A stretch of DNA of 8,500 nt from a virus (Duplodnaviria > Heunggongvirae > Uroviricota > Caudoviricetes): IMG/VR virus record IMGVR_UViG_2534681793_000001; one strand, written 5' to 3'. The position numbers and the translations under genes were made by a program. The notes below the pieces were generated by a model. That model saw only the letters and a list, made by a program, of their open reading frames with translations, was not told where the DNA came from and searched no databases. Numbering within the stretch: the first letter of the stretch is position 1; every line of letters begins with the position of its first letter. This document shows positions 2,323 to 8,500 of the stretch, in pieces.

Positions 2323-2760
2323 ATGAGCGAGAAATTAAAGATAGTCTATCGCCCATTACAAGAATTGTCACCGTATGCGCACAACGCCAGGACGCACAGT
2401 ACTGAGCAGGTGGCACAACTGGTAGAAAGTATTAAGCAATTCGGCTGGACTAATCCGGTGCTGATTGACGAAAAGGGCGAAATTATTGCGGGTCACGGTC
2501 GTGTTATGGCGGCTGAAATGCTCAAAATGGATTCTGTTCCGGTCATTGTTCTGTCTGGCCTGACGGATGAGCAGAAAAAGGCGTACCGCCTGGCAGATAA
2601 TCGCCTGCCGATGAATGCTGGCTGGGATGAAGATCTGTTGCGGATGGAGCTGTCGGACCTAATCAATGCTGATTTTGATGTCTCCCTGACAGGCTTCATC
2701 CCGACAGAAATTGATGAACTGTTGACGGATGTTTTGCCCGGTACAGGAACTGGAAATTGA
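2323..2760 (+). CDS. ParB-like nuclease domain (ParB N-terminal/sulfiredoxin fold) protein, probably truncated by frameshift
   Basis: MSEKLKIVYRPLQELSPYAHNARTHS...IAGHGRVMAAEMLKMDSVPVIVL...YRLADNRL carries the ParB N-domain motif pattern (PYxxNxRxHS, GxxR..AA, VPV, LADN). Ends at TGA 2758-2760 while an open frame continues in frame +2. Confidence 0.8.
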   Translation: MSEKLKIVYRPLQELSPYAHNARTHSTEQVAQLVESIKQFGWTNPVLIDEKGEIIAGHGRVMAAEMLKMDSVPVIVLSGLTDEQKKAYRLADNRLPMNAGWDEDLLRMELSDLINADFDVSLTGFIPTEIDELLTDVLPGTGTGN

Positions 2761-2902
2761 ACGGCGCAGAATGGAAAACCAGAAGCTGCGCAAAGAGATC
2801 GAAACGGTGGAAGATAATGAATATCCCCAGCCTGTGGCGATCAATATTAATGTGGTTGATGCCAGAGTAAGGAGTGATGAAGATGATCTCTCCGACGCTT
2901 AA
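2744..2902 (+). pseudogene. Frame-shifted 3' continuation of the ParB-like gene (coiled-coil-like tail), overlapping the terminase start
   Basis: Frame +2 reads QELEIERRRMENQKLRKEIETVEDNEYPQPVAININVVDARVRSDEDDLSDA* directly after the ParB-like stop; skipping one nt in the CCCGG run at 2737-2741 would join the frames (…LTDVLP-VQELEIERRR…). Not in the ORF track because it falls under the size cut-off. Confidence 0.35.
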
Positions 2903-3737
2903 TGTGCCTCAGGCGCGATTTCTTTCAATGCTCCATAAATTTAAAGCCTATATTGCTGGTTTTGGCTCGGGCAAAACATGGGTTGGGTGTGGCGGCATAT
3001 GCAAGGGGATTTGGGAGCATCCAGGTATAAATCAGGGATATTTTGCGCCAACGTATCCCCAAATTCGCGATATTTTTTACCCTACAGTGGAAGAAGTTGC
3101 TGCTGACTGGGGATTGAACGTAAAAATTAATGAGGGAAATAAAGAGGTTCACTTTTATTACGGACGCCAGTATCGGGGAACCACTATCTGCAGATCGATG
3201 GAGAAGCCACAAACGATCGTCGGTTTCAAAATTGGTAATGCGTTGGTGGATGAACTGGACATTTTGCCGAAGGAAAAAGCCAGAACGGCGTGGCGCAAGA
3301 TAATTGCACGTATGCGTTATAAGATTGATGGACTTCGCAACGGTATTGACGTTACAACCACGCCGGAAGGATTCAAATTTGTCTACGAGCAGTTTGTTAA
3401 AGCCGTGCGTGAAAAAACAGAGCTGGCCTCACTGTATGGTCTGGTGCAGGCATCTACTTTCGATAATGAAAAGAACCTGCCAGCAGATTACATTCCTTCG
3501 CTTCTTGAATCATACCCTCCAGAGTTGATTAAAGCCTATCTTCGAGGACAGTTTACTAACCTGACAAGTGGTACTGTTTACCATCAGTTTGACCGGAAAC
3601 TGAATAATTGCGAAGAAGTGGAGCAGCCAGGGGAGCCGATTTATATTGGGATGGATTTTAACGTTGGAAAGATGGCGGGAAGCCATTATGCCATTAACAC
3701 GAACTTCCGATGGTTCTCTTGGTGTCAGAGCTATTAA
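2883..3737 (+). pseudogene. Terminase large subunit, N-terminal ATPase domain only (3'-truncated)
   Basis: Walker A-like AGFGSGKTW, Walker B-like ALVDELDIL, and the beginning of the nuclease domain (EPIYIGMDFNVGK) immediately before the ORF ends; about 285 aa against roughly 450-500 expected. Start ATG 2883 sits 8 nt after SD AAGGAG (2869-2874). Confidence 0.75.
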
Positions 3738-3924
3738 TAGTAAAAGTGGTAATGGAGGCGGAGATATTACCTATGCCCCTGTATACCAAATCACTATTCA
3801 AAATGACGGCCAGAATGGAGAGATTGGCCCTCAGGCAATAAAAGCACTTATGGGGATGGTTGATCAGCGGGTGCAGGGCAATCTGTTAAATATGCGACGT
3901 GATGGGGGAATGTTAAGTGGCTAA
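3694..3924 (+). pseudogene. C-terminal remnant of tail tape-measure protein (lambda H-like), inferred
   Basis: Frame +1 ORF (…GVRAINSKSGNGGGDITYAPVYQITIQNDGQNGEIGPQAIKALMGMVDQRVQGNLLNMRRDGGMLSG*) ends 34 nt before the preferred start of the M-like gene, the position H occupies in lambda. Assignment rests on synteny, not recalled sequence; the 5' boundary is approximate. Confidence 0.45.
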
Positions 3925-3958
3925 TACGGAAGAATTTCACTGGTTACCAGAGGATGGA

Positions 3959-4255
3959 ATGAAAACAGAAAATAAACCATCGATAAAAACTGTAAGATTT
4001 GGCGATGGTTATGAGCAACGAAGTCCAAATGGACTTAATCATTCTCTGCGCGTTTTCACCTGTGATTTCAAAGTTGAGGCGAATGAACGTGATTCATTTG
4101 AAAAATTTTTAGCCCGGCATGAAGGCTATAAATCTTTTTTTTGGCGCCCGCCGGGTATTAACAGAAAAATCAGAGTGGTGTGTCGAACGTGGTCAGCGAC
4201 AGAACATATCACCTATACCGATTTTTCGTGTCAGTTTGACGAAGTGGTGATCTGA
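3959..4255 (+). CDS. M: Minor tail protein M (lambda M homologue)
   Basis: MKTENKPSIKTVRFGDGYEQRSPNGLN...FDEVVI resembles lambda M (…VRFGDGYSQRAPAGLN…EFEQVVN) in sequence and length; SD GAGGA 5 nt upstream of ATG 3959 (ORF track starts at GTG 3917); stop overlaps the L start (TGATG). Confidence 0.85.
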   Translation: MKTENKPSIKTVRFGDGYEQRSPNGLNHSLRVFTCDFKVEANERDSFEKFLARHEGYKSFFWRPPGINRKIRVVCRTWSATEHITYTDFSCQFDEVVI

Positions 4256-4695
4256 TGCAGGACATACAACAGGAAACGCTGAATGAATGCATTCGTGCGG
4301 AGCAGTCGGCCAGCGTGGTGCTCTGGGAAATCGACCTGACAGAGGTCGGTGGAGAACGTTATTTTTTCTGTAATGAGCAGAACGAAAAAGGTGAGCCGGT
4401 CACCTGGCAGGGGCGACAGTATCAGGCCTATCCCATTCAGGGGAGTGGATTTGAGATGAACGGCAAGGGCAGTGCTGCCCGTCCGACACTGACGGTCTCT
4501 AACCTGCACGGCATGATCACCGGGATGGCGGAAGATCTGCAGAGTCTGGTCGGCGGAACGGTGGTCCGGTGTAAGGTTTACGCCCGCTTTCTGGATGCGG
4601 TGAACTTCGTCAACGGAAACAGCGAAGCCGATCCGGAGCAGGAGGTGATCAGCCGCTGGCGCATCGAGCAGTGCAGCGAGCCGGGCTGTGGCTGA
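4255..4695 (+). pseudogene. L: Minor tail protein L (lambda L homologue), truncated after about residue 142
   Basis: MQDIQQETLNECIRAEQSASVVLWEIDLTEVGGERYFFCNEQNEKGEPVTWQGRQYQ...RWRIEQCSE is near-identical to my recollection of the lambda L N-terminus; homology stops at CSE and the ORF ends 4 codons later (PGCG*), against ~232 aa for lambda L. Confidence 0.85.
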
Positions 4696-5510
4696 TTAAA
4701 ACGGAGCTGCTGGAAACGCAGACCGTGGACTTCAGCGTGGGTGCTGAAGGGCTTCGCCATGTACCGGGCGATGTCATTGAAATCTGCGATGATGACTATG
4801 CCGGTATCAGCACCGGCGGGCGCGTGCTGGCGGTGAACAGCCAGAGCCGGACGCTGACGCTCGACCGTGAAATCACGCTGCCATCCTCCGGTACCACGCT
4901 GATAAGCCTGGTTGACGGAAGTGGCAATCCGGTCAGCGTGGAGGTCCAGTCCGTCACCGACGGCGTGAAGGTAAAAGTGAGCCGTGTTCCTGACGGCGTT
5001 GCCGGATACAGCGTATGGGGGCTGAAGTTGCCGACGTTGCGCCAGCGCCTGTTCCGCTGTGTGAGTATCCGTGAGAACGATGACGGCACGTATGCCATCA
5101 CTGCCGTGCAGCATGTACCGGAAAAAGAAGCCATCGTGGATAACGGGGCGCACTTTGACGGCGACCAGAGCGGCACGGTGAATGGTGTCACGCCGCCAGC
5201 GGTGCAGCACCTGACTGCCGAAGTCACCGCAGACAGCGGGGAGTATCAGGTACTGGCCCGCTGGGACACGCCGAAGGTGGTGAAGGGCGTGAGCTTTATG
5301 CTTCGCCTGACCGTGGCAGCGGATGACGGCAGTGAGCGGCTGGTCAGCACGGCCCGGACGACGGAAACCACATACCGCTTCACGCAACTGGCGTTGGGAA
5401 ACTACAGGCTGACAGTCCGGGCGGCAAATGCCTGGGGGCAGCAGGGCGATCCGGCGTCGGTATCGTTCCGGATTCCCGCCGTCACATGCCGGGACCATCA
5501 CCGTGTATGA
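4677..5510 (+). pseudogene. J: Internal fragment of central tail fibre / host-specificity protein J (lambda J-like)
   Basis: Frame +3 RAGLWLIKTELLETQTVDFSVGAEGLRHVPGDVIEICDDDYAGISTGGRVLAVNSQ...YRLTVRAANAWGQQGDPASVSFRI matches an internal (not N- or C-terminal) stretch of lambda J as I recall it; no J N-terminus upstream, and homology ends near 5474. Confidence 0.8.
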
Positions 5511-7479
5511 AGATTCCCGACCCGGTACGCTGAATGATTTTCTCGGTGCCATGACGGAGGATGATGCCCGTCCGGAGGCTCTGCGCCGTTTTGAACTGAT
5601 GGTGGAAGAGGTGGCGCGTAACGCGTCCGCGGTGGCACAGAACACGGCAGCCGCGAAGAAGTCAGCCGGCGATGCCGGCACATCTGCCCGTGAGGCGGCA
5701 ACCCATGCGACTGATGCTGCAGGCTCAGCACGCGCAGCCAGCACGTCAGCCGGACAGGCCGCTTCGTCGGCTCAGTCAGCGTCTTCCAGCGCAGGAACGG
5801 CATCAACAAAGGCCACTGAAGCATCAAAAAGTGCTGCCGCTGCAGAGTCCTCAAAAAGCGCGGCAGCTACCAGTGCCAGTGCCGCGAAAACGTCAGAAAC
5901 GAATGCTGCAGCGTCACAACAATCAGCAGCCACTTCTGCATCCACCGCGACCACGAAAGCGTCAGAAGCTGCCACCTCAGCCCGGGATGCGTCGGCTTCA
6001 AAAGAGGCGGCAAAATCATCAGAAACGAACGCATCCTCGAGCGCCAGTAGCGCAGCTTCCTCGGCAACAGCGGCAGGAAATTCCGCGAAGGCGGCAAAAA
6101 CGTCAGAGACGAACGCCAGGTCTTCTGAAACGGCAGCGGGACAGAGCGCCTCGGCTGCGGCAGGCTCAAAAACAGCGGCTGCGTCGTCTGCCAGTGCAGC
6201 GTCAACAAGTGCCGGGCAGGCCTCAGCCAGTGCCACCGCCGCCGGAAAATCGGCAGAAAGCGCCGCATCGTCTGCTTCAACAGCCACAACGAAGGCTGGC
6301 GAAGCCACTGAACAGGCCAGCGCAGCAGCGAGGTCTGCTTCCGCAGCGAAGACATCCGAAACGAACGCGAAAGCGTCGGAAACCAGCGCAGAATCCTCAA
6401 AAACGGCTGCCGCATCGTCAGCCAGTTCGGCGGCGTCATCGGCATCATCGGCGTCTGCTTCAAAAGATGAGGCGACCAGACAAGCGTCAGCAGCGAAGAG
6501 CAGCGCCACGACGGCATCCACGAAGGCGACAGAGGCTGCTGGCAGTGCGACGGCGGCAGCTCAGAGCAAAAGTACGGCGGAATCCGCGGCAACGCGCGCC
6601 GAGACAGCAGCTAAACGGGCAGAGGATATTGCATCCGCCGTGGCGCTTGAGGATGCAAGTACGACGAAAAAGGGGATAGTACAGCTCAGCAGTGCGACCA
6701 ACAGTACGTCTGAAACGCTGGCGGCAACGCCAAAGGCAGTAAAATCAGCCTATGACAATGCAGAGAAACGTCTGCAGAAAGACCAGAACGGCGCTGATAT
6801 ACCCGATAAGGGATGCTTCCTGAACAACATTAACGCGGTCAGTAAAACAGACTTTGCTGATAAGCGTGGTATGCGTTATATGCGGGTTAACGCTCCTGCA
6901 GGTGCAACATCTGGAAAATATTACCCTGTTGTTGTTATGCGTTCTGCTGGCTCAGTAAGCGAACTGGCATCAAGAGTCATTATCACCACGGCAACGCGAA
7001 CCGCAGGCGATCCGATGAATAACTGCGAGTTTAACGGATTTGTTATGCCTGGTGGCTGGACTGACAGGGGGCGTTATGCTTATGGCATGTTCTGGCAATA
7101 TCAAAACAATGAACGAGCCATTCACTCAATAATGATGAGTAATAAGGGCGATGATTTGCGCTCTGTGTTCTATGTTGATGGCGCTGCTTTCCCTGTTTTT
7201 GCGTTTATTGAAGATGGCCTGTCAATATCCGCACCTGGTGCTGATCTCGTTGTTAATGATACGACCTATAAGTTTGGGGCAACAAATCCGGCGACTGAAT
7301 GTATCGCGGCGGACGTTATCCTTGATTTTAAGAGTGGGCGTGGTTTTTATGAGTCTCATTCGTTAATCGTTAACGATAACTTGTCGTGCAAAAAACTTTT
7401 TGCCACAGACGAAATTGTAGCGCGTGGTGGTAATCAGATTCGAATGAATAGGTGGGGAGTATGGTGCATTATGGCGTAA
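5428..7479 (+). pseudogene. stf: Side tail fibre protein (Stf-like), N-terminally truncated; Ala/Ser-rich repeat region plus divergent central domain
   Basis: From about 5470 frame +1 reads GFPPSHAGTITVYEDSRPGTLNDFLGAMTEDDARPEALRR…, matching lambda Stf from about residue 66 onward by recollection, then a long A/S/T-rich repeat region and KGIVQLSSATNSTSETLAATPKAVK. ATG 5428 is only a chance in-frame start inside J-derived sequence. Ends at TAA 7477-7479 while the fibre continues in frame +2. Confidence 0.8.
5650..6620 (+). repeat. Imperfect tandem coding repeats (Ala/Ser/Thr-rich fibre shaft) within stf
   Basis: Recurring nucleotide unit of the form AAAACGTCAGAAACGAAYGC at about 5887, 6011, 6096 and 6345, each encoding AAK[TS]SETNA, set in continuous A/S/T-rich low-complexity coding sequence. 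Confidence 0.7.
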
Positions 7480-8490
7480 TGATGGCGCTAAAACTTACCT
7501 GCTGCTTACCAATCAAGGTGATGTTTATGGTGGCTGGAATACATTAAGACCGTTTGCTATTGATAACGCAACCGGCGAACTGGTTATTGGAACCAAACTG
7601 TCCGCAAGTCTGAACGGTAATGCATTAACAGCAACAAAGCTGCAAACGCCAAGACTGGTTTCTGGTGTTGAGTTTGATGGTTCCAAAGATATTACTTTAA
7701 CCGCCGCGCATGTGGCTGCTTTTGCCAGAAGGGCAACGGATACATATGCCGATGCGGATGGTGGCGTTCCATGGAATGCCGAATCAGGCGCTTACAATGT
7801 CACCCGCTCTGGCGACAGCTATATTCTGGTTAACTTCTATACCGGAGTCGGAAGTTGCCGGACCCTGCAGATGAAGGCGCATTACAGAAATGGTGGTCTG
7901 TTCTACCGTTCTTCAAGAGACGGTTATGGTTTTGAGGAAGACTGGGCAGAAGTTTATACCTCGAAAAATCTTCCACCAGAAAGCTACCCAGTCGGCGCAC
8001 CAATCCCGTGGCCATCAGATACCGTTCCGTCTGGTTATGCCCTGATGCAGGGGCAGGCTTTTGACAAATCTGCTTACCCGAAACTTGCAGCCGCTTATCC
8101 GTCAGGCGTGATCCCTGATATGCGTGGCTGGACGATTAAGGGCAAACCTGCCAGTGGTCGGGCCGTATTGTCTCAGGAACAGGACGGCATTAAATCGCAT
8201 ACCCACAGCGCCAGCGCATCCAGTACAGATTTGGGGACGAAAACCACATCGTCGTTTGATTACGGCACTAAATCCACGAATAACACCGGGGCACATACAC
8301 ACAGTGTGAGCGGCTCTACAAACTCGGCTGGAGCACACACACACTCACTAGCCAACGTGAACACGGCTAGTGCTAACTCCGGTGCTGGTAGTGCATCAAC
8401 AAGATTGTCTGTTGTGCATAATCAAAACTATGCAACATCATCTGCTGGCGCACATACCCACTCACTGTCCGGCACTGCTGCAAGCGCAGG
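7448..8490 (+). CDS. stf: Side tail fibre distal part (frame +2 continuation, His-box receptor-binding region), partial; runs past window end
   Basis: Frame +2 is open from 7448 to the window end: …[47 protein letters not shown]…[76 protein letters not shown]…GAHTHS…; the segment from GAPIPWPSD onward is near-identical to the lambda Stf C-terminal region as I recall it. Confidence 0.8.
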
Positions 8491-8500
8491 TGCACACGCG

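Follow-up and report, generated by a model that had tools for sequence, protein, structure and literature searches.

A terminase/tape-measure junction in an Escherichia coli Rac-type prophage is very probably the scar of an 11.85-kb internal deletion

The window analyzed here is an 8,500-nucleotide stretch that constitutes the whole of an 8.5-kb E. coli draft contig (AOGN01000043.1, assembly GCA_000340255.1; 100% identity), and at positions 3678-3681 the first part of a large terminase gene (terL) is joined to the last codons of a tape measure gene. We conclude with high confidence that this is the scar of an ~11.85-kb internal deletion in an E. coli Rac-type prophage carrying trkG and ynaK. 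A sequence-only reading of the same DNA had proposed such a scar within 3640-3760, between the ATPase half of terL and the tape measure C-terminus of a Rac-like prophage, and had suggested mapping the breakpoints against intact phages and looking for microhomology between them; the two halves do abut inside that interval, and both breakpoints are now located and share the sequence GGAA.

The terL/tape measure junction

The undeleted references are a prophage of E. coli 1919D3 (NZ_CP046006.1) and Escherichia phage vB_EcoS-666R9 (ON470614.1). The left flank of the junction (2739-3681) corresponds to the 3' end of the small terminase gene (terS) followed by terL, with 99.4% identity to 1919D3 and 99.6% to 666R9, and the right flank (3678-4679) corresponds to the 3' end of the tape measure gene followed by M and L (98.8% and 98.7% identity respectively); in both references these segments are arranged and oriented as they are in the window. 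Because the flanks are colinear and 98.8-99.6% identical over ~940 and ~1000 bp, a chance match is excluded. The two flank alignments overlap by 4 bp (GGAA, 3678-3681) that are present at both reference breakpoints, and a three-way alignment including both of these breakpoints shows neither inserted or filler DNA nor an IS remnant at 3678-3681. The junction therefore has the characteristics of an illegitimate deletion, with colinear flanks in an undeleted relative, a short microhomology and no inserted DNA, although a microhomology of at least 4 bp is expected at a random junction with a chance of ~0.016 and lends modest support. The breakpoints enclose 11,848 bp of 1919D3 and 11,847 bp of vB_EcoS-666R9, which is less than the loss of over 15 kb that had been estimated from the window alone.

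According to the 1919D3 annotation, the missing DNA encodes TerL residues 267-433, the portal (DUF4055), a minor head protein, a DUF6651 protein at the scaffold position, a P22-type coat protein, five small ORFs that lie between the coat and tail terminator genes at the head-completion/connector position, the tail terminator and tail tube, ydaY together with a small ORF, and codons 1-995 of the tape measure gene (92% of the gene). Most of the losses listed in the sequence-only reading are thus recovered (the terminase C-terminus, portal, scaffold position, coat, connectors, tail tube and most of the tape measure), but the protease is not among them, as the 1919D3 annotation shows no prohead protease gene in the lost interval. 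In this Rac-type prophage the head genes are P22-like and the tail genes lambda-like.

The terL ORF (2883-3737, + strand) matches Pfam Terminase_6N (E 1.3e-33) at residues 27-241, as counted from a GTG at 2874, over positions 3-213 of the 215 in the profile, and its translation contains the Walker A (GFGSGKT) and Walker B (ALVDELD) motifs of a packaging ATPase domain. A Pfam scan of this ORF gave no match to the Terminase_6C nuclease domain. The full-length TerL of 1919D3 is 433 aa, with Terminase_6N at residues 24-238 and Terminase_6C, an RNaseH-like nuclease, at 255-417; the window retains codons 1-266 (2883-3681, + strand; 99.4% identity to 1919D3 terL) and with them the complete ATPase domain and residues 255-266 of the nuclease domain (its first ~12 residues, IYIGMDFNVGKMAG). 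The break in the ORF is indeed a short way into the nuclease domain, as had been noticed.

Codon 266 of terL starts at 3678 and the tape measure frame at 3679, and the fusion is therefore out of frame. The terL frame reads 56 nt into tape measure DNA and stops at 3735-3737, and translation and frame arithmetic give an out-of-frame tail of 18 codons (SHYAINTNFRWFSWCQSY; 3682-3737, + strand), such that the product is 284 aa long and consists of 266 TerL residues and 18 unrelated ones. The tape measure remnant had been placed in a different frame within about 100 bp of the end of terL; the change of frame is as described, but there is no gap, and the two genes abut over the 4-bp overlap. Judged from its sequence, terL in the window is a gene fragment and not a functional member of the TerL family.

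The tape measure remnant comprises the last 82 codons of the gene (3679-3924, + strand), somewhat more than the ~75 residues first assigned by synteny. This frame matches phrog_1716 (E 3.6e-27) at profile positions 848-927 of 943, which is the extreme C-terminus, and is identical at 82/82 residues to codons 996-1077 of the 1077-aa tape measure of 1919D3; an in-frame ATG at 3688 opens a 78-aa ORF that is called by gene callers in related contigs. All of 3694-3924, a segment in which a lack of tape measure similarity would have spoken against the deletion, is thus tape measure sequence. The remnant has no Pfam match. In the 1919D3 protein, TMP_2 (267-471), TMP_4 (671-748) and Tape_meas_lam_C (858-932) all lie upstream of the retained codons, and with 82/1077 codons left the window does not encode a full tape measure of ~1000 aa with these three domains. 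The C-terminal tape measure homology is directly upstream of M, as the sequence-only reading had it, and the start of gpM at 3917 overlaps the tape measure stop. The gpM-like minor tail protein gene is intact (3917-4255, + strand; 112 aa, Phage_min_tail E 1.2e-31), and its counterpart in PSJ-16 and 1919D3 is WP_000024051.1, annotated 'phage tail protein'.

A scan of 3300-4100 for promoters and terminators gave nothing above the expectation from shuffled sequence. A 58-aa ORF on the opposite strand (3510-3686) was considered as a gene and rejected, being a mechanical ORF for which no supporting evidence was found.

A protein search with TerL yields 5,823 relatives at E <= 1e-20, and the best 120 of these are nearly all 433-436 aa long with both the 6N and 6C domains; the main E. 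coli TerL cluster among them is 433 aa and has 1,912 member sequences. Full-length homologues of ~285 aa, which would have argued for a naturally short protein, were not seen among these 120, none of which aligns with the last 6% of the 284-aa query. The other short E. coli TerL relatives are broken copies with varied breakpoints and partners. Two truncated E. coli copies have IS-like ends, one is fused to a PF18906-domain protein and one to a tail-fibre collar, and two early-truncated copies are among the relatives listed; one 231-aa truncated form has 493 member sequences. Distant relatives (83% identical) include terminase-portal and terminase-TMP_2 fusions, one of them from Enterobacter mori.

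Gene map and other lesions in the window

The arrangement of the window, in which trkG and ynaK separate the lysis genes from the packaging genes and stfR lies downstream, identifies it at the sequence level as the late region of a Rac-type prophage, and it is 99.6% identical to the Rac prophage of K-12 over 146-2576 (2,431 bp) and 98.8% identical over 5470-8500 (3,031 bp). All of the genes assigned are on the + strand. The ORF listing and family scans place Rz at 114-590 and trkG, which has a TrkH-family match, at 710-2185. The ORF listing also shows an Rz1-type lipoprotein ORF at 346-531 in another frame within Rz; an Rz1 embedded in Rz is the classical organization of spanin genes and is seen also in rzoR/rzpR of K-12 Rac. 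The ParB-like ynaK (2323-2760) was assigned from the ORF listing and a ParB_N match, and it is followed by a 3' remnant of terS of ~53 codons (2742-2902) that is evident in alignments to 1919D3 and vB_EcoS-666R9. To the right of M are a truncated gpL-like minor tail gene (4255-4679 up to the next junction, with the ORF continuing to 4695), an internal piece of gpJ (4671-5510; 270 aa) with an Ig_J domain, and an N-terminally truncated stfR that is recognized by homology to K-12 stfR and extends from 5428 to past 8500. The gpL remnant covers positions 1-114 of the 206 in the Pfam Phage_tail_L profile before it runs into the L/J junction. Three long ORFs at 5672-6679 (+), 5772-6521 (-) and 5867-6592 (-) sit in the Ala/Ser-rich repeat of stfR and are most likely artefacts of repeat composition and not genes.

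Three further junctions are present. At the ynaK/terS junction (2742-2749), which has an 8-bp microhomology (TACAGGAA), ~2,422 bp have been lost, including the C-terminal part of ynaK, two hypothetical genes and ~85% of terS; the terS copy in PSJ-16 is described by PGAP as 'terminase small subunit, missing N-terminus'. At the L/J junction (4674-4680, approximately 4679/4680) 2,965 bp are missing, comprising the C-terminus of L, K, I and the N-terminus of J, and there is no exact microhomology; a 6-bp overlap of the BLAST alignments was rejected as a microhomology because it contains a mismatch to the reference, which is 95% identical. At the J/stfR junction (5470-5479) the overlap is GGATTcCCGC (10 bp with one reference mismatch) and 2,196 bp are lost, with the C-terminus of J, lom and the first ~65 codons of stfR. 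In addition, the stfR frame stops at 7479, short of the end of the contig, to which homology to K-12 stfR extends. The gene differs from that of K-12 by a 1-nt indel, and the stfR copy in PSJ-16 is flagged as frameshifted by PGAP.

On this gene content the prophage is predicted to be unable to package DNA or to build heads and tails on its own. The sequence-only reading had attributed the same incapacity to the loss between terL and the tape measure gene, and although that deletion would be enough to account for it, it is not the only such lesion, as the losses in terS and at the L/J and J/stfR junctions and the frameshift in stfR would also block particle production. Defective prophages are sometimes packaged with help from other prophages (PMC2669165), a caveat that is tempered by the loss of most of terS from the window prophage.

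Occurrence of the junction and comparison with other Rac elements

Among 5,426 complete E. coli genomes the junction is present in one, that of strain PSJ-16 (NZ_AP027632.1), with 100% identity over 201 bp. RefSeq/PGAP annotates the two genes there as partial pseudogenes, terL (AABJ77_RS12030) with 'missing C-terminus' and the tape measure gene (AABJ77_RS12025) with 'missing N-terminus'. The exact 284-aa product is indexed in 48 assembly-collection blocks and was read on at least 24 contigs, and six other draft contigs, which come from unrelated projects, match ~8 kb of the window at 99.94% identity or higher and have all four of its junctions. In every copy seen, the terL remnant is an open ORF with intact Walker A and B motifs. 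A 40-nt pattern spanning the junction has 0 exact matches in species-representative genomes, a result of little weight since this collection has one genome per species, and the closest intact right flank among the 5,426 complete genomes is 98.8% identical. None of these 5,426 genomes shares exactly one of the two terL/tape measure breakpoints, and no complete genome has the ynaK/terS junction with an intact terL-to-tape measure interval; PSJ-16 alone has the ynaK/terS junction, and it has both. The junction marks a clonal lineage, which is presumably recent.

The chromosomal location can be seen in PSJ-16, which shares the junction; the window contig itself ends inside stfR. The right end of the PSJ-16 element (tfaR-pinR-ydfK-ynaM-uspF-ompN) has the same order as that of K-12 Rac (tfaR-pinR-ynaE-ynaM-uspF-ompN), and the name of a paralogous cold-shock gene is the sole difference. 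The terL/tape measure and ynaK/terS junctions of PSJ-16 are identical to those of the window, but PSJ-16 has a further deletion of ~2.4 kb, equivalent to 4652-7062 of the window and with alignments that overlap by 7 bp, which has removed the L/J and J/stfR junctions and left the other two. This extra deletion is a later event and shows one lineage in the course of stepwise decay.

Elements that share the junction differ upstream of Rz. One draft contig has genes for Dam, NinE, RusA and Q and a porin gene in this part, and PSJ-16 has DUF1367, YbcO, DUF1133 and TolA-like genes as well as a lysozyme gene with IS3 insertions. These elements, otherwise near-identical in their late regions, are thus mosaic in the early-to-lysis region.

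Comparison with Rac-like prophages of other strains, which had been put forward as a check, shows elements that are either colinear with the window (1919D3) or scarred in the same or in separate ways (PSJ-16, EcPF15 and K-12). The 1919D3 prophage and vB_EcoS-666R9 are colinear with, and 98.7-99.6% identical to, every late-region segment that the window retains, and represent the undeleted state with terS, a 433-aa TerL, the genes from portal through tail tube, ydaY, a 1077-aa tape measure, M, L, K and I, followed in 1919D3 by J, lom and stfR. Both keep the 11.85 kb that are absent from the window as well as the ~2.42 kb between ynaK and terS, and 1919D3 also keeps the 2.97 kb and 2.20 kb lost at the other two junctions. 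The relationship of vB_EcoS-666R9 to Rac extends to the early genes (integrase, RalR, RecT, RecE [exonuclease VIII], RacC, Kil and SieB), which are followed by TrkG, ParB, terS and terL.

The Rac prophage of K-12 MG1655 (NC_000913.3, 1411899-1434958) resembles the window in Rz/Rz1, trkG, the 5' part of ynaK and stfR (98.8-99.6% identity), and in both the morphogenesis genes have been removed by internal deletion. The scars are different. In K-12, one scar joins ynaK to ydaY, and another joins ynaA, the N-terminal third of the tape measure gene, to lomR; K-12 lacks 2577-5469 of the window entirely (the terS and terL remnants, the tape measure C-terminus, M and the L and J remnants), and the window lacks the ydaY and ynaA of K-12. 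Because the scars differ and are not nested, they are independent, and neither element derives from the other. EcPF15 is different again in having an intact 433-aa TerL, a portal/tape measure junction and a ynaK/terS junction unlike that in the window.

Such variation is in keeping with earlier reports that strains differ in the size and gene content of their Rac prophage, recE and trkG being its best conserved genes, and that half of it was missing from over half of 154 genomes (PMC5700373). In defective lambdoid prophages such as the Sp prophages of O157 Sakai, morphogenesis genes have likewise decayed through deletions, IS insertions and frameshifts (PMC2669165), and the window prophage is one more instance. 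We found no paper in the literature on this specific junction, and what is available are general statements on Rac variability and on defective prophages.

Origin and consequences of the deletion

We propose that a deletion joined terL codon 266 to tape measure codon 996 of 1077 at the shared GGAA, most likely by illegitimate, homology-independent recombination at short homology, for which replication slippage or microhomology-mediated end joining would provide a route. The longer overlaps at the ynaK/terS and J/stfR junctions fit the same short-homology process. That one deletion explains the junction, as had been suggested, is the simplest reading and a single step is probable; it is unproven in that nested deletions, or an IS-mediated deletion followed by loss of the IS, would leave the same junction. 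An earlier, smaller deletion or an IS insertion could have been consumed by later deletions, and the region has clearly been deleted repeatedly and independently: the window has four junctions, two of which were swallowed by the later deletion in PSJ-16, the portal/tape measure junction of EcPF15 and the ynaK/ydaY and tape measure/lomR junctions of K-12 are others, and some TerL truncations elsewhere end in IS-like sequence. We nonetheless regard a multi-step origin as unlikely, given that the 5,426 complete genomes contain no one-breakpoint intermediate, that the junction carries no IS remnant or filler, and that one event is more economical.

An exchange between prophages would leave a similar arrangement if terL had come from one lambdoid prophage and the tape measure gene from another in the same chromosome. 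E. coli strains have several related prophages, with the tape measure/M/L segment found at a median of 2 and up to 9 places per genome, and the right flank is slightly more diverged than the left (98.8% vs 99.4%). It is nevertheless the same Rac-type phages that match both flanks best, with order and orientation preserved, the PSJ-16 element is at the Rac locus with normal chromosomal flanks, and an overlap of 4 bp does not suggest homologous exchange, all of which makes such a crossover very improbable. It also seems highly unlikely that the 284-aa ORF is a genuine short, ATPase-only terminase-like gene that has been kept for its function. Its last 18 residues are tape measure DNA read out of frame, nearly all of its best relatives (the 120 noted above) are of full length with a nuclease domain, and truncations in other copies break at many positions, which fits random decay. 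The presence of an identical protein on at least 24 contigs with intact Walker motifs might be taken as a sign of selection, but the copies are at least 99.94% identical across 8 kb that include non-coding DNA, which reflects clonal descent. The match of phrog_38319 ('unknown function', 271 positions) to TerL residues 1-266 (2883-3680; E 3.1e-172) might similarly suggest a natural short form, and we rejected it as evidence for one because the match ends exactly where the TerL sequence of the window ends and because many truncated E. coli TerL copies exist; this PHROG family was probably built from such copies and is therefore mislabelled. Finally, an 8.5-kb draft contig bounded by repeated phage DNA could in principle be chimeric or collapsed in short-read assembly, but the identical junction in the complete PSJ-16 chromosome and in contigs from several unrelated projects leaves an artefact with scarcely any probability.

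The remnants were probably kept because trkG, the selected cargo, is located upstream of them and because the deletion is recent and has been passed on clonally, and both the terL and the tape measure remnants are most likely without function. The terL remnant, with its intact ORF and Walker A and B motifs, may have some residual activity, and one could imagine that it is expressed, co-assembles with the terminase of an incoming Rac-like phage and poisons the packaging motor. Were this so, it would represent a superinfection-interference function that arose by accident and was then retained. We consider this idea far-fetched, in that its sole support, the intactness of the ORF, is already explained by clonal recency.

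The window is a case of ordinary prophage decay, of which the PSJ-16 copy is already annotated as such in RefSeq, and the repeated deletional decay of Rac with retention of trkG is a documented pattern; the non-nested scars in the window lineage, PSJ-16, EcPF15 and K-12 provide a clean, small example of repeated independent decay in which trkG is kept. For annotation, the terL-like ORF and the short ORF downstream of it should be labelled as pseudogene fragments, and the element as a defective Rac-type prophage that makes no particles by itself.
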